Positions 8,426-61,226 of a DNA stretch of 64,000 nucleotides are shown here, one piece after another. The translations under genes and the position numbers were made by a program. The stretch lies in sequence record PP418985.1; one strand, 5' to 3'. Numbering within the stretch: position 1 is the first letter of the stretch; each line of letters opens with the position of its first letter. This stretch comes from Escherichia phage UPWr_E1. The notes under the pieces are model-generated. The model was not told the DNA's origin and did no database searches. It saw only the letters and a list, made by a program, of their open reading frames with translations.

Positions 8426-9604
8426 ATGGCTAAATTCTTTGAAGGGCATTACTATGCATTCCGTGAAGGCGGTAAAGATGAGTTTCTAGATTTTTCTCGC
8501 TATTCAACTATTCTGACCGATGCTTCGCGCCGTGGTCATATTCGGGTTGCTGGAATCGTAGAAAAGGGCTTTAAAGTATTAGAAAAAGATGACCACGGTC
8601 ATGTTGTTACTATTGAAGCTGGTGATGTGGTTTATTCCGCTAAGGATATTGTGGATTATTGGGCTACTATGATCATGCACAATGAGCGCAAATACTTTAA
8701 ACGTATCTCAAAAGAGACATACGAAGCAATGAATAAGAAAGAGGATGTAATGCCGACCTACTTTGAAAAAGGTAAATGTTATTCATTCACTCCAGAAGGT
8801 TTGCAAGAATTTAAGCGATTCTGGGGAGAGCATGATCCAGAACACAAAGAAGCCATGAAACTTGTTGATTTTGTTGAGTATGGCTTTTTAGTTGAAGAAG
8901 AATTTCACGGATCAGCTACCATGATCACCGCGAAAGATGAAACCGTCAAGGCAGAACGTTTTTGTGACCAATGGAATTGCTTGTTTGATGGTAGCGAATT
9001 TGAATACTTCGCAGAGATCACCCGCGCTGAATATACCCGTATGCAAGAACGTGGTCAGAGATTTAAAGTAGGCGAACGCTACAAGCCAAATCCACATAAT
9101 TTGCCTCATTGGTTTAACACTGAAACCGTATCAAGTCATGTTATTGAAATTGTTCAAACGCTGGAACATGGATTTAAGGTAACTAAAGTAGATTCTTTCG
9201 GAAGTGTTGACGCGGTTGAAGTTGATGGTGTAGAATATACTCCTAAATCTTTTGGGCTTTGCTGGTATCACCTGATCAGCAATGATGAACGTTATTACTT
9301 TGTTGAACTGCCATCTGAACCGGAAGAAGCACTAGAAGATCATGATCATCTGTCTGAACTGGTTAAACTGTTTGGTGATCTGCCGGGTGGTGTAGGGGTG
9401 GCGGTAATGGGTGAAGGTGCTGTTATTCGCAACCTGAAAGACCTTAAAAAGTTCTTGTTCGACATGCTGCCTAAACTCGATGAGAATCTAGATACAGATA
9501 TTCAGAATCGCAAAGAAATTGTTAAAGAGACTGAAAAAGAGATCGAAGAGATTCGAGCAATTCGCCAGAAGGTGAAAGCAGTAAAGAAAAAAGTTAGTGC
9601 TTGA
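8426..9604 (+). CDS. repeat-domain family protein (3 modules + C-terminal helical region, 392 aa)
   Basis: Stem-loop promoter 8366-8400; internal repeats each ending ERKYFKRI / EFEYFAEI / ERYYFVEL. Confidence 0.65.
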   Translation: MAKFFEGHYYAFREGGKDEFLDFSRYSTILTDASRRGHIRVAGIVEKGFKVLEKDDHGHVVTIEAGDVVYSAKDIVDYWATMIMHNERKYFKRISKETYEAMNKKEDVMPTYFEKGKCYSFTPEGLQEFKRFWGEHDPEHKEAMKLVDFVEYGFLVEEEFHGSATMITAKDETVKAERFCDQWNCLFDGSEFEYFAEITRAEYTRMQERGQRFKVGERYKPNPHNLPHWFNTETVSSHVIEIVQTLEHGFKVTKVDSFGSVDAVEVDGVEYTPKSFGLCWYHLISNDERYYFVELPSEPEEALEDHDHLSELVKLFGDLPGGVGVAVMGEGAVIRNLKDLKKFLFDMLPKLDENLDTDIQNRKEIVKETEKEIEEIRAIRQKVKAVKKKVSA

Positions 9605-9634
9605 CATGCAAAGGGAGTATGCTATAATACTCCC
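9601..9634 (+). promoter_or_regulatory. early promoter with -10 inside hairpin loop (type II)
   Basis: TTGACA 9601-9606; GGGAGTAT 9613-9620 / ATACTCCC 9627-9634; TATAAT 9623-9628. Confidence 0.75.
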
Positions 9635-9658: not shown

Positions 9659-10153
9659 ATGTGGGTACAAGATATTTGGTATACTGTAACTAAAGAAAAC
9701 CTTGACGCATTCAGCGACCAATCTTGCGCTAATAGCTCAATTGCTGGTATCCTTACTGATGTGTTTGGGGGTGTAGATAAAATTCGTTTTAAAGTTGTTG
9801 TTAGTTCGCTGGGTCAGGTGAAAGATCTTTACACCGACGATAAAGACCTTGATCTTAAACTTCGTCTTCGTATTGAAAATGCAAGTCTAGGTTATTGGTT
9901 TGAAGATAACGAATATGAATACTTCACACCAGCAATTAAAGTTTTTGCAACTAAACTGGAAGCTGTACTGAATCTTCGACCAATTAATGTTGACGGGTAC
10001 ATTATTAAAAATCTTCAGGAGTGGGATTCATATCTAGCTCAAGTTATCCGTAACAGCAAGCAGGAAGCCGCTAATAAGAAACGACAAGAGATCAAACAGC
10101 TTAAAGCTGAACTAGAAGCGGCAGAAAAAGAATTAGCAGAACTGGTAAAATAA
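9659..10153 (+). CDS. hypothetical protein with C-terminal coiled coil (164 aa)
   Basis: Stem-loop promoter 9601-9634; terminator 10163-10185 downstream. Confidence 0.6.
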   Translation: MWVQDIWYTVTKENLDAFSDQSCANSSIAGILTDVFGGVDKIRFKVVVSSLGQVKDLYTDDKDLDLKLRLRIENASLGYWFEDNEYEYFTPAIKVFATKLEAVLNLRPINVDGYIIKNLQEWDSYLAQVIRNSKQEAANKKRQEIKQLKAELEAAEKELAELVK

Positions 10154-10162
10154 CTATCAACG

Positions 10163-10185
10163 AGCGGGAGAAATCCCGCTTTTTC
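10163..10185 (+). terminator. intrinsic terminator
   Basis: AGCGGGA-gaaa-TCCCGCT then TTTTT. Confidence 0.8.
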
Positions 10186-10197
10186 ATAGGTGATACA

Positions 10198-12060
10198 ATG
10201 GAAAAACTAATCAAAGACATTACAGAAATCGCAACGGGTAAAGAAAACGAAGTAAGCAAAGAGAACGCGAACAAAGACGCGCGAACATTCCCGACACGTC
10301 GAGATCTGATTGCTGGTGCTGTGTCTAAACAGATTGCTAAAACCGTGTTACCTGAGCACATCTATAAAGCGCATGTAGACGGTGATATTCATTATCATGA
10401 TATGGATTATGCACCCGCTATGCCGTTTACTAACTGCTGTCTTGTTAATCTCAAAGACATGTTAGAGAATGGTTTTAAATTGGGTAGTGCACAAATCGAA
10501 AGTCCGAAATCAATCGGTGTTGCATGTGCTGTAACCGCTCAAATTATCGCACAGGTGGCAAGTCATCAATATGGCGGAACTACCATAGCAAACATTGATC
10601 AGGTTTTAGCGCCATACGTTGAGAAAACATATCATAAACACCTTGCTGATGCCGAAACCTACGGAATCAAAGCTGATACTCTCTATGCACAAGAGAAGAC
10701 AGAAAAAGAAACGCTAGACGGATATCAGGCGTTGGAATATGAGATCAACACTTTGTTCTCTACCAATGGTCAAACGCCTTTTGTGACTTTAACATTTGGT
10801 ATGGGTACTAGCTGGGAAGAAAAACTGATTCAGAAAGCGATCCTGAACGTTCGAACTAAAGGTTTAGGTAAAGATGGTATCACTCCGGTGTTTCCTAAGC
10901 TGGTGATGTTCTTAGAAGAAGGATTAAACCTTAAACCGGAAGATCCGAACTACGACATTAAGCAACTTGCATTGGAATGTTCTAGTAAGCGTCTTTACCC
11001 TGATTATATCTCTGCGAAGAATAACCGTAGTATCACTGGATCTAGTGTTCCGGTTAGCCCGATGGGTTGTCGTAGCTTCCTGGGTGTGTGGCATAATGAG
11101 AAAGGCGAAGAAGTATTAGACGGACGTAATAACTTAGGTGTTGTGACTCTGAATCTTCCGCGTATTGCTCTTATTGCCGCGCGTCGTGCTGGTAAAGCGT
11201 CTGTAATGCGCAGAATTGAGCTATTCGAACAAGAGCTAGCTAATCGTATGCCTATTTGCTTTGATGCGCTCATGAGTCGCGTAGACGCTTTAAAAGGCGC
11301 TAAAGCCAATGTTGCTCCTGTACTGTATACCGAAGGTGCATTTTTCCGTATTCATCAAAACGATGAAATTTTGGAAGTGCTGAAAGATGGTCGCGCTAGT
11401 ATCTCTCTTGGTTATATTGGTTTACATGAGGTATTGAGCGTCCTGTTTGGTGTCCATCCGTTTGATTCGGAAGATGCGCAGCGATACGGTAAACATATTC
11501 TTAAGATCTTGCGTCATTATACTGAAAAATGGAAGGACGAAACCGGACTTGGGTTTAGTCTTTACGGTACGCCAGCCGAGAGCCTTTGTTATCGATTTAA
11601 TCGACTTGACCGAGAGCAATTTGGTATTATTAAGGGTGCTACCGATAAAGACTGGTACACCAACTCATTCCACCTTGACGTAGACCGGAAGGTTACACCG
11701 TTTGAGAAAATCGACTTTGAGAAAGATTATCACTGGCTGGCGTCCGGTGGCATGATCTCTTATGTTGAGTTCCCAGACATGAAAAACAACCTGAAAGGTC
11801 TTGAAACTGTAGTAGACTATGCAATGGATAAATTGCACTACTTCGGTGTTAATACCCCTTCTGATGTGTGTCATGTATGCGGATCTACTAAGGAAATGAG
11901 AGCGACCGAGTTTGGTTTTGTTTGTCCTGATTGCGGCAATGATAATCTGGAAAAAATGAATGTTATCCGTCGCGTTAGTGGATATCTTGGATCTGTTGAT
12001 CTGCGTCCATTTAACCACGGGAAACACTCTGAGATGGTAAACCGCGTTAAGCATATGTAA
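10198..12060 (+). CDS. nrdD: anaerobic ribonucleoside-triphosphate reductase (class III)
   Basis: 620 aa; C-terminal glycyl-radical region and zinc ribbon (CHVCG...CPDCG); no intron interruption. Confidence 0.92.
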   Translation: MEKLIKDITEIATGKENEVSKENANKDARTFPTRRDLIAGAVSKQIAKTVLPEHIYKAHVDGDIHYHDMDYAPAMPFTNCCLVNLKDMLENGFKLGSAQIESPKSIGVACAVTAQIIAQVASHQYGGTTIANIDQVLAPYVEKTYHKHLADAETYGIKADTLYAQEKTEKETLDGYQALEYEINTLFSTNGQTPFVTLTFGMGTSWEEKLIQKAILNVRTKGLGKDGITPVFPKLVMFLEEGLNLKPEDPNYDIKQLALECSSKRLYPDYISAKNNRSITGSSVPVSPMGCRSFLGVWHNEKGEEVLDGRNNLGVVTLNLPRIALIAARRAGKASVMRRIELFEQELANRMPICFDALMSRVDALKGAKANVAPVLYTEGAFFRIHQNDEILEVLKDGRASISLGYIGLHEVLSVLFGVHPFDSEDAQRYGKHILKILRHYTEKWKDETGLGFSLYGTPAESLCYRFNRLDREQFGIIKGATDKDWYTNSFHLDVDRKVTPFEKIDFEKDYHWLASGGMISYVEFPDMKNNLKGLETVVDYAMDKLHYFGVNTPSDVCHVCGSTKEMRATEFGFVCPDCGNDNLEKMNVIRRVSGYLGSVDLRPFNHGKHSEMVNRVKHM

Positions 12061-12066
12061 TTTTCA

Positions 12067-12098
12067 GCCGATCCGAAAGGGTCGGCTTTTTCGTTTTT
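12067..12098 (+). terminator. intrinsic terminator after nrdD
   Basis: 8-bp stem GCCGATCC / GGGTCGGC with GAAA loop, then TTTTTCGTTTTT. Confidence 0.8.
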
Positions 12099-12103
12099 AG
12101 GTG

Positions 12104-12131
12104 TTGACAATCTTGTTAGCTCATGTATAAT
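12104..12131 (+). promoter_or_regulatory. sigma70-type early promoter (extended -10)
   Basis: TTGACA 12104-12109; TGTATAAT 12124-12131. Confidence 0.7.
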
Positions 12132-12163
12132 GCACATATCGAAAACAAAGAGAGGATAACATT

Positions 12164-12700
12164 ATGTTTTGTGTACTGAATAAAGAAATTAAAATTCGCA
12201 AGTTAGAAATTGGTGATGGTGTAGTTGTTAAAATGCACGCTAGCACACTGGCTAGCTTTGGTACAAAAGAAAGTTTCTTTATTATGGGAACTGTTGTTAA
12301 TATCTGCTGGAGTAAAGGCGAAGGCACACAAATCCGTAGTTTTTGTGTCGTTGACGAAGATAATAATCTGTATGTGATTCGCTATCAGAATCAATCTGTA
12401 TTGGTTTATACCGATAATTCACGAGAACTGTATACGCTGGACTTTGCTAAACTATGTGATTGTGATAAAAAGATTCAGGCGTACCACACAGAAGGCTGTT
12501 TTGGTGTTGGCGTCGAAGAGGAAGAGTACATCCCATTGGAAGTCGGGGCAGAAATTAAACATAGTGCCACGGATCGTATTTTTACGGTTGTTGCTGTTAA
12601 TGCAACTCAATTTGTAGCACAAGCACATAATACGGGATTCGTTATCTATGACATTGGTAATGCAAGTTCTCATTTTGAGGGCGTACAATTTCGTTTATAA
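12164..12700 (+). CDS. hypothetical protein (178 aa)
   Basis: Promoter 12104-12131; ATG 12164 after AGAGGATAACATT. Confidence 0.55.
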   Translation: MFCVLNKEIKIRKLEIGDGVVVKMHASTLASFGTKESFFIMGTVVNICWSKGEGTQIRSFCVVDEDNNLYVIRYQNQSVLVYTDNSRELYTLDFAKLCDCDKKIQAYHTEGCFGVGVEEEEYIPLEVGAEIKHSATDRIFTVVAVNATQFVAQAHNTGFVIYDIGNASSHFEGVQFRL

Positions 12701-12712
12701 TGTGAGGTGATT

Positions 12713-13243
12713 ATGTCTAAGTTATTGAATCGTAAGCGTAAAGCACAACGACACAAAGAACGAGCTAAAAAGATTGCTATTGAACTCTGTGAGCGTGAGG
12801 ATAGCTATTTGTCTACTGGTCGTTTGCATACATTCCATGCATTGATTGATGGTAAGCCAGTGTTGCATAATCATGATTGCTTGGCACTGTTTCACGAAAT
12901 CGAACCAATTCATCGTGAATGGGATGACAACAAAGCAAAAGGTCAATATTTCCTTACTTGTTCGTGCGGTCATGCTGGATGTGCTGGATATTGGGAACCT
13001 GTTACTATCCGCGAGAAAAATGATACTATTCAATGGGTTGCCCGTACCCGCGATGGTTATGATAAAGGTGCTGATTGTACTGGTGATAACGTAGTTTACT
13101 TTAATCGTGATTGGTATTATATGGCGCGATGTATGATCCTGTTTTATCTTGACTCGATGCCGTATGAATATTTCAGTTTCCAGAATGGGACCGAACTTAC
13201 TGGTAGAGAATGGTCTGAATACATTCGAAAAAATTTAAAATAA
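12713..13243 (+). CDS. hypothetical protein, basic N-terminus, Cys/His cluster (176 aa)
   Basis: ATG 12713 after GTGAGGTGATT; CSCGHAGCAGYW motif. Confidence 0.55.
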   Translation: MSKLLNRKRKAQRHKERAKKIAIELCEREDSYLSTGRLHTFHALIDGKPVLHNHDCLALFHEIEPIHREWDDNKAKGQYFLTCSCGHAGCAGYWEPVTIREKNDTIQWVARTRDGYDKGADCTGDNVVYFNRDWYYMARCMILFYLDSMPYEYFSFQNGTELTGREWSEYIRKNLK

Positions 13244-13247
13244 ACGC

Positions 13248-13276
13248 TTGACGGGGATCGCGAGATCCCCTATACT
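13248..13276 (+). promoter_or_regulatory. early promoter with spacer stem-loop (type I)
   Basis: TTGACG 13248-13253; GGGGATC-gcga-GATCCCC 13253-13270; TATACT 13271-13276. Confidence 0.75.
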
Positions 13277-13318
13277 ATATTCATCAAGACGAGATACAAC
13301 TTTACAGGAGAATCAAAT

Positions 13319-13471
13319 ATGTGGACTTTACTGATTTGGGAAACTGAAAACGCACAAGTAGAAATCCGTGAATACGAATACCTAAGCCCAGCTTATCTAT
13401 TGGCATCTCGCGGTGGTTACTATAAAGCGCAGATTGTAAACGAGTTCGGGGTAATTGAATATGAGTTCTGA
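13319..13471 (+). CDS. hypothetical small protein (50 aa, not in ORF track)
   Basis: ATG 13319 after AGGAGAATCAAAT downstream of stem-loop promoter 13248-13276; overlaps nrdG start by 11 nt. Confidence 0.4.
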   Translation: MWTLLIWETENAQVEIREYEYLSPAYLLASRGGYYKAQIVNEFGVIEYEF

Positions 13472-13964
13472 TACATACGGCAAACTACGCTATGCCGATA
13501 TTAAAGATTGTGATATGGTTAACGGTGAGGGAGTGAGAGTCTCCCTTTACGTTACCGGATGTTCACACGCATGTGATGGTTGCTTTAATGCTAGCCTACT
13601 CAATCCTAAGAACGGGGAACCATTCACCGATGATACAATGGGATTGGTTTTGGATCTGCTTAGACCGGATTTTATTCAGGGGCTAACCTTCTTAGGTGGT
13701 GATCCGTTGTATAAACGAAATTTAAAGGGTGTACAACGGATCATTGATGAAGTAAAATCATGGATGCCAAATAAAGATATTTGGCTATGGTCCGGTTATA
13801 CCCTTGACCAATTGAATGATGAGCAAAGAAAAATTATAGAATCAGTTGACATGTTCATCGATGGTCGGTATATTAAAGACATGCCAACGAAGAAGCCGTG
13901 GCGGGGGTCTGACAATCAAGTACAATACAAGATTGTTGATAATATCCCAGTGAAAATTATTTGA
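13461..13964 (+). CDS. nrdG: anaerobic ribonucleotide reductase activating protein (radical SAM)
   Basis: Cys cluster CSHACDGC; size about 167 aa; track start 13455 is TTG, ATG 13461 preferred. Confidence 0.85.
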   Translation: MSSDTYGKLRYADIKDCDMVNGEGVRVSLYVTGCSHACDGCFNASLLNPKNGEPFTDDTMGLVLDLLRPDFIQGLTFLGGDPLYKRNLKGVQRIIDEVKSWMPNKDIWLWSGYTLDQLNDEQRKIIESVDMFIDGRYIKDMPTKKPWRGSDNQVQYKIVDNIPVKII

Positions 13965-13974
13965 GGTGATTATT

Positions 13975-14463
13975 ATGAAATGGGAATTGGGTAAGATGTA
14001 CACTCTTGATGGTGACGAGAAGAAAGCAGAATTTACCAAATCGGAACTGTCAATAAACCGTCAAGTTGCCGAGTTTCTTGATGGGCGTCCTTTTACCGTC
14101 GAGGCTATGAGTAATGAGGGTCATGTTCTTGAAATCTCGTTAAGTGATGGTAAATGTATTTCTGTTCTGGACACTCCAATTGGTGCACATGGCGCGTGGT
14201 TTTGGGCTGGTGAACGTCGATTCTTTAAAGAAGTTAAAGAACCGGATTTAACCTTAGAACGTCTGGGTCTGCTTATGGAAGCCTACGACATTCAGTTAAT
14301 CGACAAGACGGGTCTACAACATAGTATTGCCAAAATTACTACCCTAGAAGGTATTAAGAGCGTTCTAAATGGTATGCCTAGCCGGATCGGTGCTATCCGC
14401 GAATACAAGCAAACGCGCGACCGTATGATCCAATTAGAATCACGTATCAAAAATGAGAGATAA
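13975..14463 (+). CDS. repeat-domain family protein (MKWExGK module + helical C-terminus)
   Basis: ATG 13975 after GAGGTGATTATT; MKWELGKMY...DGRPFTV...ERRFFKEV. Confidence 0.6.
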   Translation: MKWELGKMYTLDGDEKKAEFTKSELSINRQVAEFLDGRPFTVEAMSNEGHVLEISLSDGKCISVLDTPIGAHGAWFWAGERRFFKEVKEPDLTLERLGLLMEAYDIQLIDKTGLQHSIAKITTLEGIKSVLNGMPSRIGAIREYKQTRDRMIQLESRIKNER

Positions 14464-14467
14464 TATT

Positions 14468-14953
14468 ATGAAATGGGAAGAAGGTAAGACCTATGTGTTG
14501 GTTGGCGAGTACGAAAAGCGTATTTTGCGTGATTGTTGGCGTTACGAACAAAGACCTAATATTGATGGCAGGTTTACATATCTCGATAAACCATTTATTG
14601 TTGCTACGGTAGACCGTTGGGGTAATGTGCGTTCAATCTATAATCACGAAGGGGATTATATTAGTTCTATCGATATTGGTGATAATATATGGTTTTCCGA
14701 TGGCGACCGAGCGTGCTTCAAAGAAGTTTTATTACCTGGCCATGAACATGATCTAATCGATCTTCTCAAATTGGCGATGGATAATTATAAAATTCGTTTT
14801 GAATGCAAATCACATGCGGCTATCGGTGCTAACGCCTTGCGTCATATCTCCAGTTTTGAAGAGTTGAAAGATTTTCTTGACAAAATGCCGGAAAGAGTTC
14901 AAGCTATACAGGAAGCTGAGAAAGCGTTAAACGAACTTGATAAAATCGGTTAA
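14468..14953 (+). CDS. repeat-domain family protein
   Basis: MKWEEGKTY...DKPFIV...DRACFKEV; ATG 14468. Confidence 0.6.
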   Translation: MKWEEGKTYVLVGEYEKRILRDCWRYEQRPNIDGRFTYLDKPFIVATVDRWGNVRSIYNHEGDYISSIDIGDNIWFSDGDRACFKEVLLPGHEHDLIDLLKLAMDNYKIRFECKSHAAIGANALRHISSFEELKDFLDKMPERVQAIQEAEKALNELDKIG

Positions 14954-14965
14954 GAGGATTATATT

Positions 14966-15799
14966 ATGAAATGGGAAATTGGTAAAACTTACACTTGGAA
15001 AGATGAAAACGCTAAAACTGCGTTTATTGCTAACATAGAAGGTGTTCTTTCTCCGCTTAATAGCGATATTAGCGAAGCTATTGGCGACAAGCCATTTACA
15101 ATCATCGAGATCGAGGGTAATGGTTGGATTGATGTAATAGAGCTAGACGGTGTTTATCATACGGCGAAAACTGCTACAGGAAAAGACATTTGGACATCAA
15201 CATATTTCTTTAGTCCATTCGATAGAAAATTCTTTCGTGAAGTTGAAGAAGTTCCTCCTAAATGGGAAGTTGGTAAAACTTATATTTGGAAGGATGTAAA
15301 CGCAAAAGTGACGTTTTCTCACTGTTCTAATATCAACCGTAAAATTGCTGATTGGATAGGAGATGAGACTTTTACGGTATCTTCCGTTGATTCTGTTGGT
15401 TTCGTTACTATGATCGACGTCAATAATGATAATGCTTGTGGAACATTTAATCCTCATTCAGCTGGTGTTGATGATGATGTTGATGCTGTGTGGTTTGTTG
15501 GGCTTGAACGAAAATATTTTCGTGAAGTTGAAACAGTGAAAGAACCAGAAGAAAAGGTGAACGATGATTCTAAGATCGTTGGACAGTTGAAACGTCTGTT
15601 TAGTAGTCGTTATGGCCTGACAATGGTTAAATTTGGCGAAGCAAATGAAGGTAAAACCTTTGAACGTTTCGATGATTTCATTGCAGCACTTGACAAAATG
15701 GACGAAATCATGCAAGATCGCCAGAAGATTAAAGACCTTCAAGAAGATATTAAACGTCGTGAAGTTGAATTTTTGATTGGTAAAGAGCGAGGTTGGTAA
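14966..15799 (+). CDS. repeat-domain family protein (2 tandem modules + helical C-terminus, 277 aa)
   Basis: MKWEIGKTYTW...DRKFFREV then KWEVGKTYIW...ERKYFREV; ATG after GAGGATTATATT. Confidence 0.65.
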   Translation: MKWEIGKTYTWKDENAKTAFIANIEGVLSPLNSDISEAIGDKPFTIIEIEGNGWIDVIELDGVYHTAKTATGKDIWTSTYFFSPFDRKFFREVEEVPPKWEVGKTYIWKDVNAKVTFSHCSNINRKIADWIGDETFTVSSVDSVGFVTMIDVNNDNACGTFNPHSAGVDDDVDAVWFVGLERKYFREVETVKEPEEKVNDDSKIVGQLKRLFSSRYGLTMVKFGEANEGKTFERFDDFIAALDKMDEIMQDRQKIKDLQEDIKRREVEFLIGKERGW

Positions 15800-15800
15800 T

Positions 15801-16283
15801 ATGTTTGTTGTCGGTATGACCTATCAGTGGAAAGATAATAAAACGCGCGAAGATTTTACAAACTCTAGCGTTGCAAATGATGCAATAGCAGAGTTTATCG
15901 GCGACCGTCCATTTAAAGTTATTGCGTTTGATCACCATGCACCGGATATCGAATATGTTTCTGTGATTGAAATTGATGGCACGATATACACCTGCCGCAA
16001 TGTTGATGATGTACGTGAATACGCGCACAACTGGTTTTTGCAATCAGAAGAACGTTATTTTAAAGTGGTATCGGCAGAACTGACCACCGATGCAATGTTG
16101 GAACATTTTTTCAACAACTACGAAGTTTCTGTGCGTCGATATGGTGAAGAGGAAGTGTTTAAAATTGATGACTATAATCAATTTAAACGAGTATTTGCCA
16201 CTAAGTTACAGCATGATGTTGAACGCGAACAACGCATCAAGGAACTGGAAGAAGAACTGGAACGATTAAAGGCAGAGAAATGA
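15801..16283 (+). CDS. repeat-domain family protein (1 module + coiled-coil C-terminus)
   Basis: MTYQWKD...DRPFKV...ERYFKVV; ELEEELERLKAEK tail; ATG 15801. Confidence 0.6.
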   Translation: MFVVGMTYQWKDNKTREDFTNSSVANDAIAEFIGDRPFKVIAFDHHAPDIEYVSVIEIDGTIYTCRNVDDVREYAHNWFLQSEERYFKVVSAELTTDAMLEHFFNNYEVSVRRYGEEEVFKIDDYNQFKRVFATKLQHDVEREQRIKELEEELERLKAEK

Positions 16284-19613: not shown

Positions 19614-19645
19614 GAGAGCATCGAAAACGAAGAGAGGAAGAGAAT

Positions 19646-50207: not shown

Positions 50208-50230
50208 AAGCCGATCCTCGTGGTCGGCTT
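50208..50230 (+). repeat. 23-nt terminator hairpin repeat, copy 1
   Basis: AAGCCGATCCTCGTGGTCGGCTT; identical in inverse orientation at 61354-61376; same stem with a different loop at 12066-12088. Confidence 0.8.
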
Positions 50231-50248: not shown

Positions 50249-50277
50249 TTGACTTCAAGAATCTAGCATTGCATAAT
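50249..50277 (+). promoter_or_regulatory. sigma70-type early promoter
   Basis: TTGACT 50249-50254; TGCATAAT 50270-50277. Confidence 0.65.
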
Positions 50278-61218: not shown

Positions 61219-61226
61219 TATTTATA
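61219..61226 (-). promoter_or_regulatory. T4-type late promoter (TATAAATA) for the gene 36-like tail fibre gene
   Basis: + strand TATTTATA 61219-61226 = TATAAATA on - strand, about 34 nt upstream of ATG 61185 with GAGGT RBS between. Confidence 0.65.

Follow-up and report, generated by a model that had tools for sequence, protein, structure and literature searches.

Why do nrdD and nrdG, which encode the large subunit of the anaerobic class III ribonucleotide reductase and its radical-SAM activase, stand apart in Escherichia phage UPWr_E1 (PP418985.1), and how is nrdG transcribed from its position behind the intervening DNA? A first-pass annotation of the 64-kb window (the whole stretch of phage DNA analysed here) had read the intervening region as an inserted two-gene cassette with its own terminator and promoters. 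The window belongs to an RB49-like T4-type coliphage of the genus Krischvirus. We consider it very likely that positions 12061-13460 form a small hyperplastic islet, made of two early modules each led by a promoter-early stem-loop (PeSL), that has split nrdD from nrdG since before the diversification of Krischvirus.

Two modules between nrdD and nrdG

Every element that had been placed at the junction was found there, with all coordinates correct to within 1 nt. The two nrd genes are indeed separated by a module that has a terminator and two sigma70-type promoters of its own, but it contains three genes rather than two. Moreover, it is not a single cassette; two modules are present instead, a hypervariable one composed of PeSL1, ORF1 and ORF2, and a nearly invariant one composed of PeSL2, a 50-aa DUF7170 gene and nrdG. 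The features of the locus are as follows.

10162-10184, + strand: terminator-like hairpin followed by U5, directly upstream of nrdD (fold dG -13.9, z -3.4)
10198-12060, + strand: nrdD, large subunit of anaerobic class III ribonucleotide reductase, intact (Pfam NRDD 2e-175, Gly_radical 2.9e-22)
12066-12098, + strand: PeSL1 hairpin, with a 9-bp stem, GAAA loop and T-rich tail (fold dG -16.6, z -4.6)
12104-12131, + strand: PeSL1 promoter, TTGACA-16-TATAAT, a 12/12 match and the predicted early promoter for ORF1-ORF2
12164-12700, + strand: ORF1, 178 aa, phrog_14838, ribosome-binding site GAGAGGA, JSE-type allele
12713-13243, + strand: ORF2, 176 aa, phrog_8242, ribosome-binding site GAGGTG, RB49/JK32-type allele
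13248-13276, + strand: PeSL2, TTGACG-17-TATACT, a 10/12 match with a hairpin in the spacer (13253-13270)
13319-13471, + strand: 50-aa gene, DUF7170 (PF23776 at 6.8e-18; phrog_4653)
13461-13964, + strand: nrdG, radical-SAM activase of NrdD (Fer4_12 at 6.9e-43; phrog_626)

The 50-aa ORF overlaps the nrdG ATG (13461) by 11 nt. The flanking genes carry the signatures of their families: a glycyl-radical domain and the motifs RVSGY and CHVCG...CPDCG (the C-terminal Zn ribbon) for a class III NrdD, and the CX3CX2C motif, here CSHACDGC, together with the Fer4_12 domain for a NrdG activase.

The arrangement is ancestral to Krischvirus

The order nrdD, ORF, ORF, 50-aa ORF, nrdG was found in all 58 Krischvirus records searched, with the 1400-nt region covered in every one, and also in two IMG/VR contigs and one Logan contig. 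Because all 58 records share it, the layout is ancestral to the genus rather than an insertion particular to this genome. This synteny comparison overturns the view of the region as non-ancestral, for which ancestry in related genomes had been named beforehand as the contrary outcome. A search of IMG/VR for intermediate relatives with an empty site returned just two contigs, both 98% identical.

The closest parallels are RB49 (RB49p056-p052), Phi1 and GEC-3S (BN201_0056-0052), which have nrdD, a 178-aa ORF, a 175-aa ORF, a 50-aa ORF and nrdG in the same order, with the same terminator and two promoters as UPWr_E1. The stretch from nrdD to nrdG (10198-13964) shows 93.5-94.0% nucleotide identity to these three phages and others, and in 50-nt windows their nrdD, PeSL2, 50-aa gene and nrdG are ~90-100% identical to ours. 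Unlike them, UPWr_E1 joins a JSE-type ORF1 to an RB49-type ORF2. The arrangement itself was already known: GenBank has carried its gene order from the time of the RB49 record AY343333, where the ORFs appear as RB49p055/054/053, and in the GEC-3S record the PeSL1 hairpin is annotated as a terminator and both promoters as promoters, alongside the three ORFs. Promoter-hairpin cassettes and their link to genome plasticity, nrdD included, were published in 2010 and 2014. Since the layout is normal and annotated in RB49-like coliphages and is bounded by published PeSLs, we regard it as ordinary.

A recent event, in which a mobile two-gene cassette entered between adjacent nrdD and nrdG in this genome or a narrow lineage, would fit the existence of such adjacency in the family, seen in the direct nrdD/nrdG overlaps of phages RB14 and id4496, and the slightly lower GC3 of ORF1 and ORF2 (30-31%) than of nrdD, the 50-aa gene (ORF3) and nrdG (38-39%). 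It is at odds with the presence of the same three ORFs in the same place throughout the genus and in the three metagenomic contigs, with the failure of ORF1 to occur outside Krischvirus in 50,697 phage records, and with alleles at the site that have diverged beyond the backbone, implying long residence. We regard this reading as refuted and give it next to no credence.

The junction in T4 and other genera

The expectation that nrdG should immediately follow nrdD came from T4, but T4 carries mobC between the two genes. Direct overlap is found in RB14 (4 nt) and Enterobacter phage id4496 (11 nt), and the comparison supports the Krischvirus module being derived relative to these genomes. Other genera have 0, 1 or 6 unrelated ORFs at the junction, with one small ORF in Jiaodavirus. 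T4 mobC, a free-standing HNH homing endonuclease, resembles the Krischvirus insert in being a foreign gene at the same junction. The mobC gene, however, is a selfish endonuclease that overlaps both neighbors and has neither a terminator nor a promoter of its own, whereas no nuclease signature is present in the Krischvirus insert, which brings its own regulatory cassettes. A mobC-like homing-endonuclease insertion was rejected as an explanation: no HNH, GIY-YIG or LAGLIDADG ORF is present, no nuclease family was detected in ORF1-3 with Pfam, PHROGs or NCBIfam, and fold searches gave only chance-level LAGLIDADG fragments (E > 0.6).

Lw1 (Pseudotevenvirus) and VAC66 (Slopekvirus) come closer, as both have small ORFs between nrdD and nrdG and, like Krischvirus, a promoter-containing hairpin directly downstream of nrdD. 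They carry six ORFs rather than three, and none of these inserts shows homology to ORF1, ORF2 or DUF7170. We count these cases as support for the nrdD/nrdG junction being a recurrent insertion hotspot. Because the cargo differs among T4, Jiaodavirus, Krischvirus, Pseudotevenvirus and Slopekvirus, synteny with T4 is an unreliable ancestral reference at this position.

Both regulatory elements belong to the PeSL motif family

PeSLs were described for RB49 and phi1 by Arbiol et al. 2010 (PMC2839356) and Comeau et al. 2014 (PMC4122927) as intergenic composite motifs that combine an AT-rich tract with a sigma70 promoter and a stable hairpin, lead into a Shine-Dalgarno sequence and an ORFan start, and sit in plastic regions of the genome. 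The hairpin can occupy any of five positions (upstream of the -35 box, overlapping it, between the two boxes, overlapping the -10 box or downstream of it), and nrdD is named as a PeSL-associated gene (PMC2839356).

By sequence, both elements at the nrdD-nrdG junction are textbook PeSLs. Each has sigma70-consensus -35 and -10 boxes, matching at 12/12 positions in PeSL1 and 10/12 in PeSL2, and each has a suitably placed stem-loop, 17-38 nt upstream of -35 in PeSL1 and filling the spacer in PeSL2. Both are intergenic: the nrdD stop (12058-12060) is followed by PeSL1, GAGAGGA and the ATG at 12164, and the ORF2 stop (13241-13243) by an aaaataaacgc tract, PeSL2, the leader AGGAGAATCAAA and the ATG at 13319. 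Finally, both are tied to variable gene content, with identity breakpoints at each and ORF1/ORF2 alleles that reassort. A Gn-loop-Cn stem is present in PeSL2 (GGGGATC/GATCCCC) but absent from PeSL1 (AGCCGATCC/GGGTCGGCT), which in this respect departs from the typical PeSLs of RB49 and phi1; this composition is not obligatory, as PMC2839356 describes it as occurring "frequently".

The PeSL1 hairpin consists of AGCCGATCC-GAAA-GGGTCGGCT at 12066-12087, followed by TTTTCGTTTTT to 12098. Its RNA fold of -16.6 kcal/mol was equaled in 0 of 200 shuffles, and it is kept in the eight genomes aligned, with one G-U change, in JSE. Judged by its sequence, it probably acts on nrdD transcripts as an intrinsic terminator or an attenuator. 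A perfect 7-bp hairpin, GGGGATC-GCGA-GATCCCC (dG -13.9, z = -3.0), forms the PeSL2 spacer, and no U-tract follows this hairpin, making a terminator role doubtful. Across the same eight genomes, the hexamers of both promoters and both hairpins are conserved; the spacer of the PeSL1 promoter varies, and PeSL2 is invariant.

These promoters exceed what chance would provide, because the window contains nine 12/12 matches, all on the + strand, against ~0.01-0.05 expected per strand by our own estimate, and because the hexamers are invariant. The window holds at least 15 PeSLs, all on the + strand (five with the hairpin in the spacer, eight with it over the -10 box and two with an upstream terminator). 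Four other copies share the PeSL2 architecture, at 1478, 3551, 20672 and 51318, and the leader AGGAGAATCAAA is common to several PeSLs. Beyond this motif level, blastn-short found no longer repeats between the PeSLs of the window; PeSL1 and PeSL2 each match themselves, with one exception, a 19-nt match of the PeSL1 leader at 19620-19638.

ORF1 and ORF2 alleles reassort between conserved segments

In nrdD, nucleotide identity to relatives stands at 97-100% (dS 0.08-0.13); it falls from about 12111 and returns to 100% from 13261. Between these points, the window's ORF1 matches that of JSE at 94-100% along most of its length and that of RB49 at 58-90%, whereas its ORF2 is 94-100% identical to those of RB49 and JK32 but 34-78% identical to those of JSE, Makalu2 and KFS-EC. 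The proteins follow suit, with ORF1 at 91% identity to JSE against 73-76% to RB49 and most others, and ORF2 at 93-98% to the RB49 type. Over the 1.4-kb region as a whole, identity to the records of the collection goes no higher than 88.3%; a Logan metagenome contig carries the same ORF1 allele (99%) in the same layout. All four combinations of ORF1 and ORF2 alleles occur, in the window, in JSE, in RB49 and in Makalu2/KFS-EC, and the two genes thus reassort independently between genomes.

Both are expressed-type genes under purifying selection. The dN/dS values of 0.11-0.31 between alleles of ORF1 and of ORF2 indicate that they are real genes, and dS between divergent alleles reaches 0.7-1.9, compared with 0.08-0.17 in nrdD and nrdG. 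By this measure, the alleles far exceed the backbone in age, by about 5-15 times.

The breakpoints coincide with PeSL1, the conserved 5' end of ORF2 (about 12750-12765) and PeSL2; divergence between ORF2 alleles continues up to the stop codon, and the adjoining PeSL2 is invariant. We propose that the PeSLs and the first ~50 nt of ORF2, all of them conserved, could serve as homology "linkers", at which co-infecting Krischviruses would recombine to swap ORF alleles. The route proposed in the literature for RB49 and phi1 involves ectopic PeSL-PeSL excision or a mini-circle, whereas here homologous recombination at orthologous conserved segments suffices. Because the PeSLs have no extended sequence in common, ordinary homologous recombination at orthologous flanks explains the swapping as well as PeSL-PeSL exchange or mini-circles would; with repeats absent beyond the motif level, we do not claim ectopic PeSL-PeSL exchange at this locus, and the breakpoint at about 12750-12765 lies away from any PeSL. 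The locus is of modest value, as a clear case of modular shuffling put in numbers, with breakpoints on conserved regulatory linkers.

Transcription of nrdG

Our account of which promoters are used, how efficiently transcripts terminate and where nrdG mRNA originates draws on sequence and on reporter assays made with other PeSLs. The reporter data cover PeSL211/210, 193/192 and 206/205 of phi1/RB49; promoter and terminator activities were shown in lacZ fusions, and one PeSL stem-loop lowered expression to a degree comparable with the rrnB T1 terminator (PMC2839356). By analogy, in the first module the hairpin at 12066-12098 would attenuate or terminate nrdD transcripts and the sigma70 consensus promoter at 12104-12131 would then drive ORF1 and ORF2. 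In the second, the promoter with the G4/C4 hairpin spacer (13248-13276) would drive the DUF7170 microgene and, via the 11-nt overlap, nrdG. Both promoters are presumably fired by host RNA polymerase early in infection, and nrdG transcripts would come mainly from the PeSL2 promoter, with a contribution from PeSL1 read-through. Transcription of nrdG from this hairpin promoter, as the first-pass annotation had suggested, is therefore a plausible reading of the sequence. A literature search found no published RNA-seq for Krischvirus; early 5' ends of RB49 were reportedly mapped by Desplats et al. in 2002.

Alternatively, nrdD and nrdG could still be largely co-transcribed, on long early transcripts running from a promoter at 9601 through nrdD and ORF1-3 into nrdG, with the hairpins acting as attenuators or RNA-stability elements and the PeSL promoters merely adding flux. 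The upstream flank of nrdD bears directly on this possibility. The gene begins 14 nt behind the hairpin and U5 at 10162-10184, a site whose ortholog is annotated as a terminator in GEC-3S and Makalu_002, and no promoter was found at 10154-10197, leaving none between that hairpin and the nrdD ATG, so read-through of such hairpins must occur in this genome for nrdD to be expressed. The missing U-tract after PeSL2 points the same way, as do the term "terminator/attenuators" that Arbiol et al. used for PeSL stem-loops (PMC2839356), the placement of all genes on the same strand and the lack of a nearby late promoter: none able to drive nrdG was found, TATAAATA occurring once in 64 kb, at a distance and on the other strand. 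By contrast, of the three hairpins the one behind nrdD is the strongest (a 9-bp stem with six GC pairs, the GAAA tetraloop and the T-rich tail), a PeSL stem-loop can reduce lacZ expression to an rrnB T1-like extent, and high flux from upstream would leave no need for the perfect-consensus promoter directly after the hairpin. On balance, we hold predominant co-transcription to be a real possibility that we lean against.

Functions of the inserted genes

Searches of Pfam, NCBIfam, PADLOC and PDB sequences gave no match for ORF1 or ORF2, and a large protein database yielded only four ORF2 homologs and six ORF1 homologs, all at least 49% identical. ORF1 is predicted to be all-beta, with SH3/Tudor-like barrels, and carries a frameshift in MIZ2 and, it appears, in several further records. 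ORF2 has an invariant motif, FLTCSCGxAGCAGYWEP; its AF2 model (pLDDT 70) had no Foldseek match with E < 0.26. The products of the two genes are probably dispensable early host-interaction proteins.

The DUF7170 protein is 98-100% identical to those of six Krischvirus comparators and has homologs at 50-64% amino-acid identity in Drexlerviridae (T1-like), Certrevirus and Aeromonas phages. In the T1-like and Certrevirus genomes inspected (two genera), these homologs lie among small early ORFs and have no adjacent nrdG.

The location of the genes within nrdDG might suggest that ORF1, ORF2 and/or DUF7170 are accessory parts of the anaerobic ribonucleotide reductase, a role that would suit their fixed position throughout the genus, the near invariance of the DUF7170 gene and its overlap with the nrdG start, and the Cys/His-rich character of the ORF2 motif, which from its sequence could bind metal. 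The wider distribution of these families speaks against such a role: DUF7170 homologs occur without a neighboring nrdG, in Certrevirus-type and Aeromonas phages the homologs of ORF2 and of DUF7170 are far apart, and the junction in other genera holds unrelated ORFs, a homing endonuclease or nothing. Nor do the frameshifts in ORF1, the absence of Cys residues from DUF7170 or the lack of family, PDB or fold matches favor it, and we judge it very improbable.

Another reading, which we think unlikely, is that DUF7170 is a widely mobile host-takeover or anti-defense peptide and that the deep, purifying-selected ORF1/ORF2 alleles, flanked by the invariant PeSL 'linkers', are a balanced polymorphism kept by diverse host defenses; if so, the nrdD/nrdG junction would be a family-wide landing pad for counter-defense genes. 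The literature search found no papers mentioning DUF7170. A single GenBank record, Roth84, labels a homolog 'anti-RM protein stp1', and no origin for the label was traced. Identity with T4 Stp-type anti-restriction peptides was rejected, as BLASTP against T4 Stp (26 aa) gave no alignment at E <= 100. The similarity of DUF7170 to its homologs in other phages includes one 48-nt stretch that is 89.6% identical.

Layout and regulatory elements of the nrdD-nrdG region

In UPWr_E1, nrdD and nrdG are separated by three genes, which are served by two sets of promoter and hairpin elements. Every element listed in the first-pass annotation was recovered, with coordinates right to within 1 nt.

Features of the nrdD-nrdG region
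10198-12060, +, nrdD; glycyl-radical domain and Zn ribbon intact
12066-12087, +, hairpin 6 nt past the nrdD stop; 9-bp GC-rich stem, GAAA loop
to 12098, +, T-rich tail directly 3' of the stem
12104-12131, +, promoter P1; TTGACA-16-TATAAT, perfect consensus
12164-12700, +, ORF1; good ribosome-binding site
12713-13243, +, ORF2; good ribosome-binding site
13248-13276, +, promoter P2; TTGACG-17-TATACT
13319-13471, +, 50-codon ORF (DUF7170); 11-nt overlap with nrdG, whose start codon is at 13461
13461-13964, +, nrdG; radical-SAM CX3CX2C motif

The hairpin after nrdD has an RNA dG of -16.6 kcal/mol (z = -4.6; an equally good fold in 0/200 shuffles), and the P2 spacer forms a perfect 7-bp hairpin, GGGGATC-GCGA-GATCCCC (dG -13.9, z = -3.0). 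These features and the ORFs are not chance, because promoters matching at 12/12 positions occur nine times in the window, always on the + strand, against well under 0.1 per strand expected by our own estimate; because both hairpins and the promoter hexamers are invariant in eight aligned genomes, the P1 spacer being variable; and because ORF1 and ORF2 are under purifying selection (dN/dS 0.11-0.31).

The flanking elements are promoter-early stem-loops (PeSLs): PeSL1 comprises the hairpin with its tail (12066-12098) and P1, and PeSL2 is P2 with its spacer hairpin. PeSLs, ~50 of which occur in each of RB49 and phi1, are composite intergenic motifs in which an AT-rich tract is combined with a sigma70 consensus promoter and with a stable hairpin, followed by a Shine-Dalgarno sequence and an ORFan start (Arbiol et al. 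2010, PMC2839356). Five hairpin positions are described, before or over the -35 box, between the two boxes, and over or after the -10 box, of which those between the boxes or over -10 are the most common; a few PeSLs acted as promoters and terminators in lacZ reporters, and nrdD is among the few genes of known function named as PeSL-associated (PMC2839356). The ‘type I stem-loop promoter’ of the first-pass annotation thus belongs to the published PeSL subclass whose hairpin sits between -35 and -10. Our census of the window found 15 PeSLs, five with the hairpin in the spacer (1478, 3551, 13248, 20672 and 51318), eight with it over the -10 box and two with an upstream terminator (12104 and 50249); the leader AGGAGAATCAAA is common to several of them. 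The terminator at ~50208-50230, before the promoter at 50249, reads AAGCCGATCC-TCG-TGGTCGGCTT, and its stem arms nearly match those of the nrdD terminator at 12066-12087, AGCCGATCC-GAAA-GGGTCGGCT; such a pair could allow ectopic exchange.

A derived arrangement shared throughout Krischvirus

Searching phage records with 10198-13964 gave 58 matches at 93.5-94.0% nucleotide identity, all of them RB49-like coliphages of the genus Krischvirus (including RB49, Phi1, JSE, GEC-3S and ECD7) and most deposited on the strand opposite to ours. The three genes occupy the identical place in 58/58 records, and the same layout recurs in one Logan contig and two IMG/VR contigs. RB49 is already annotated with it (RB49p055/054/053), and the GEC-3S annotation explicitly includes the terminator and both promoters. 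The layout of the module had thus been annotated before, and its regulatory elements belong to a motif class already in the literature.

The first-pass annotation had proposed a two-gene cassette inserted between nrdD and nrdG, on the premise that nrdG immediately follows nrdD in T4. That premise is mistaken: in the T4 RefSeq record, mobC, an HNH homing-endonuclease gene, lies between the two and overlaps both. Direct nrdD/nrdG overlap is found instead in RB14 (4 nt) and Enterobacter phage id4496 (11 nt). Jiaodavirus carries one small ORF at the junction, compared with three genes in the window, and Pseudotevenvirus Lw1 and Slopekvirus VAC66 carry six ORFs each, none homologous to the window's three. 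Across the family, then, different cargo has landed repeatedly at this junction, and the Krischvirus arrangement is derived; within the genus, by contrast, it is universal. A real, derived module with its own regulatory cassettes thus stands, but the synteny comparison makes it ancestral to the genus, the very outcome that the first-pass annotation had named as refuting its proposal.

In Lw1 and VAC66, moreover, nrdD is followed directly by a hairpin in which a promoter is embedded. In our extracts of these genomes (Lw1, L003 1288-1325; VAC66, L004 2448-2485) it is a 13-bp hairpin, AAAAGCCC(C)TTG...GGGCTTTT, whose left arm holds a -35-like TTGCGA or TTGACT and which GTTATATTG follows, so that two further genera have a PeSL-like element at this junction. 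No insertion interrupts the window's nrdD, in contrast to JSE nrdD, whose two annotated CDSs flank a homing-endonuclease ORF (extract L006 1-2500), and T4 nrdD, which has an intron carrying an endonuclease ORF in addition to mobC before nrdG (extract L010 2907-6386).

Allele exchange within the module

We profiled 50-nt sliding identity between the window and six relatives. Identity to all six is 97-100% across nrdD, begins to drop at ~12111 and returns to ~100% from 13261 onward. ORF1 is a JSE-type allele, with 94-100% identity to JSE along most of the gene; the values for RB49 and GEC-3S are 58-90%, and for JK32 50-76%. Affinity switches at ~12750-12765, and ORF2 is of the RB49/GEC-3S/JK32 type (94-100%), JSE, Makalu_002 and KFS-EC having a very different allele (34-78%). 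ORF2 alleles differ up to the stop codon itself; PeSL2 is invariant. All four ORF1/ORF2 allele combinations exist (window, JSE, RB49 and Makalu_002/KFS-EC), and recombination between ORF1 and ORF2 has therefore occurred. Divergent alleles of both genes have dS of 0.7-1.9, far above nrdD and nrdG (0.08-0.17), and are thus much older than the backbone; same-type ORF2 alleles have dS of 0.10-0.19. The alleles are exchanged between genomes and are not evolving fast in situ. As no database match to the 1.4-kb region exceeds 88.3%, the window's combination is new, but trivially so.

Ectopic PeSL-PeSL exchange or mini-circles, a published mechanism, found no evidence in the window comparison. No extended sequence common to PeSL1 and PeSL2, or to other PeSLs of the window, was found, and one breakpoint lies in the conserved 5' end of ORF2, outside any PeSL. 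It is therefore sufficient to assume that co-infecting relatives undergo ordinary homologous recombination at orthologous ‘linkers’ that are conserved between them.

Predicted transcription

The sequence supports a model in which the nrdD hairpin would lower read-through, P1 would drive ORF1-ORF2 and P2 would drive the DUF7170 gene and nrdG, the 11-nt overlap of the latter two suggesting translational coupling. P2, the stem-loop promoter that the first-pass annotation took as the apparent source of nrdG transcripts, need not be the only one: because no U-tract follows the PeSL2 hairpin, transcripts from P1 probably run on into nrdG, and PeSL stem-loops have been termed "terminator/attenuators" (Arbiol et al., PMC2839356). 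Read-through of a similar structure also seems to be needed for nrdD itself: a terminator-like hairpin with U5 (10162-10184, dG -13.9), at a site where GEC-3S and Makalu_002 have an annotated terminator, lies 14 nt before the nrdD start, and no sigma70 promoter was found between them, so that nrdD transcripts would have to come through it from the PeSL promoter at 9601-9628. Inside the 3' end of nrdG, TTGACA-17-TATATT (11/12; 13846-13874) is a promoter-like site oriented toward the downstream genes.

No late promoter was found near nrdD-nrdG; the 64 kb contain a single copy of TATAAATA, the core of T4 late promoters (61219-61226, - strand), versus 5.6 expected from shuffles. Neither a motA ortholog nor middle promoters were found in RB49 (PMC1524935). 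With 58/70 strong sigma70-like sites on the + strand, the window reads as essentially one long early region.

The intervening genes and their neighbors

Neither ORF1 nor ORF2 matched any family, defence system or PDB sequence. ORF1 (phrog_14838) is confined to Krischvirus and has an all-beta AF2 model (pLDDT 84). Its ortholog is split by an apparent frameshift into two overlapping CDSs in MIZ2 (extract L021 895-1439) and tblastn recovers it as two separate segments in MIZ3, pEJ01 and phiS; ORF1 is probably dispensable, unless the split records reflect sequencing errors. Distant homologs of ORF2 (phrog_8242) are present in Certrevirus-type and Aeromonas phages. The ORF2 motif FLTCSCGxAGCAGYWEP (C-x-C-x4-C; 12950-13000, residues ~80-96) and the nearby tract LALFHE are invariant among alleles just 50% identical; the motif could be a metal site. 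A fold search with the ORF2 AF2 model (pLDDT 70, low confidence around the motif) gave no match.

Pfam places the 50-aa protein in DUF7170; it has no defence-system or PDB sequence match. It is 98-100% identical to its counterparts in six Krischvirus comparators, and homologs at 50-64% identity occur in 457 phage records, chiefly of T1-like Drexlerviridae. In those genomes that were inspected, the homolog sits in a group of small early ORFs with no adjoining nrdG. An accessory role for the three genes in the anaerobic reductase is unlikely, because other genera have unrelated cargo or none at the junction and DUF7170 and ORF2 homologs occur elsewhere without a neighboring nrdG. In a single record, Roth84 (extract L014 1329-1481), the homolog, which overlaps its downstream gene by 11 nt as in the window, carries the label ‘anti-RM protein stp1’. 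No source for that label was found, and the 50-aa protein is unrelated to T4 Stp. A 48-nt stretch of the DUF7170 gene (13411-13458) is 89.6% identical to T1-like phages IsaakIselin and Samwise.

The nrdD-nrdG block sits embedded in a tandem array of paralogous genes (13975-16283, also 9659-10153; phrog_5347/622/3710) with MKWExGKxY N-termini and 29-33% mutual identity; one 277-aa ORF (14966-15799) holds two paralog copies.
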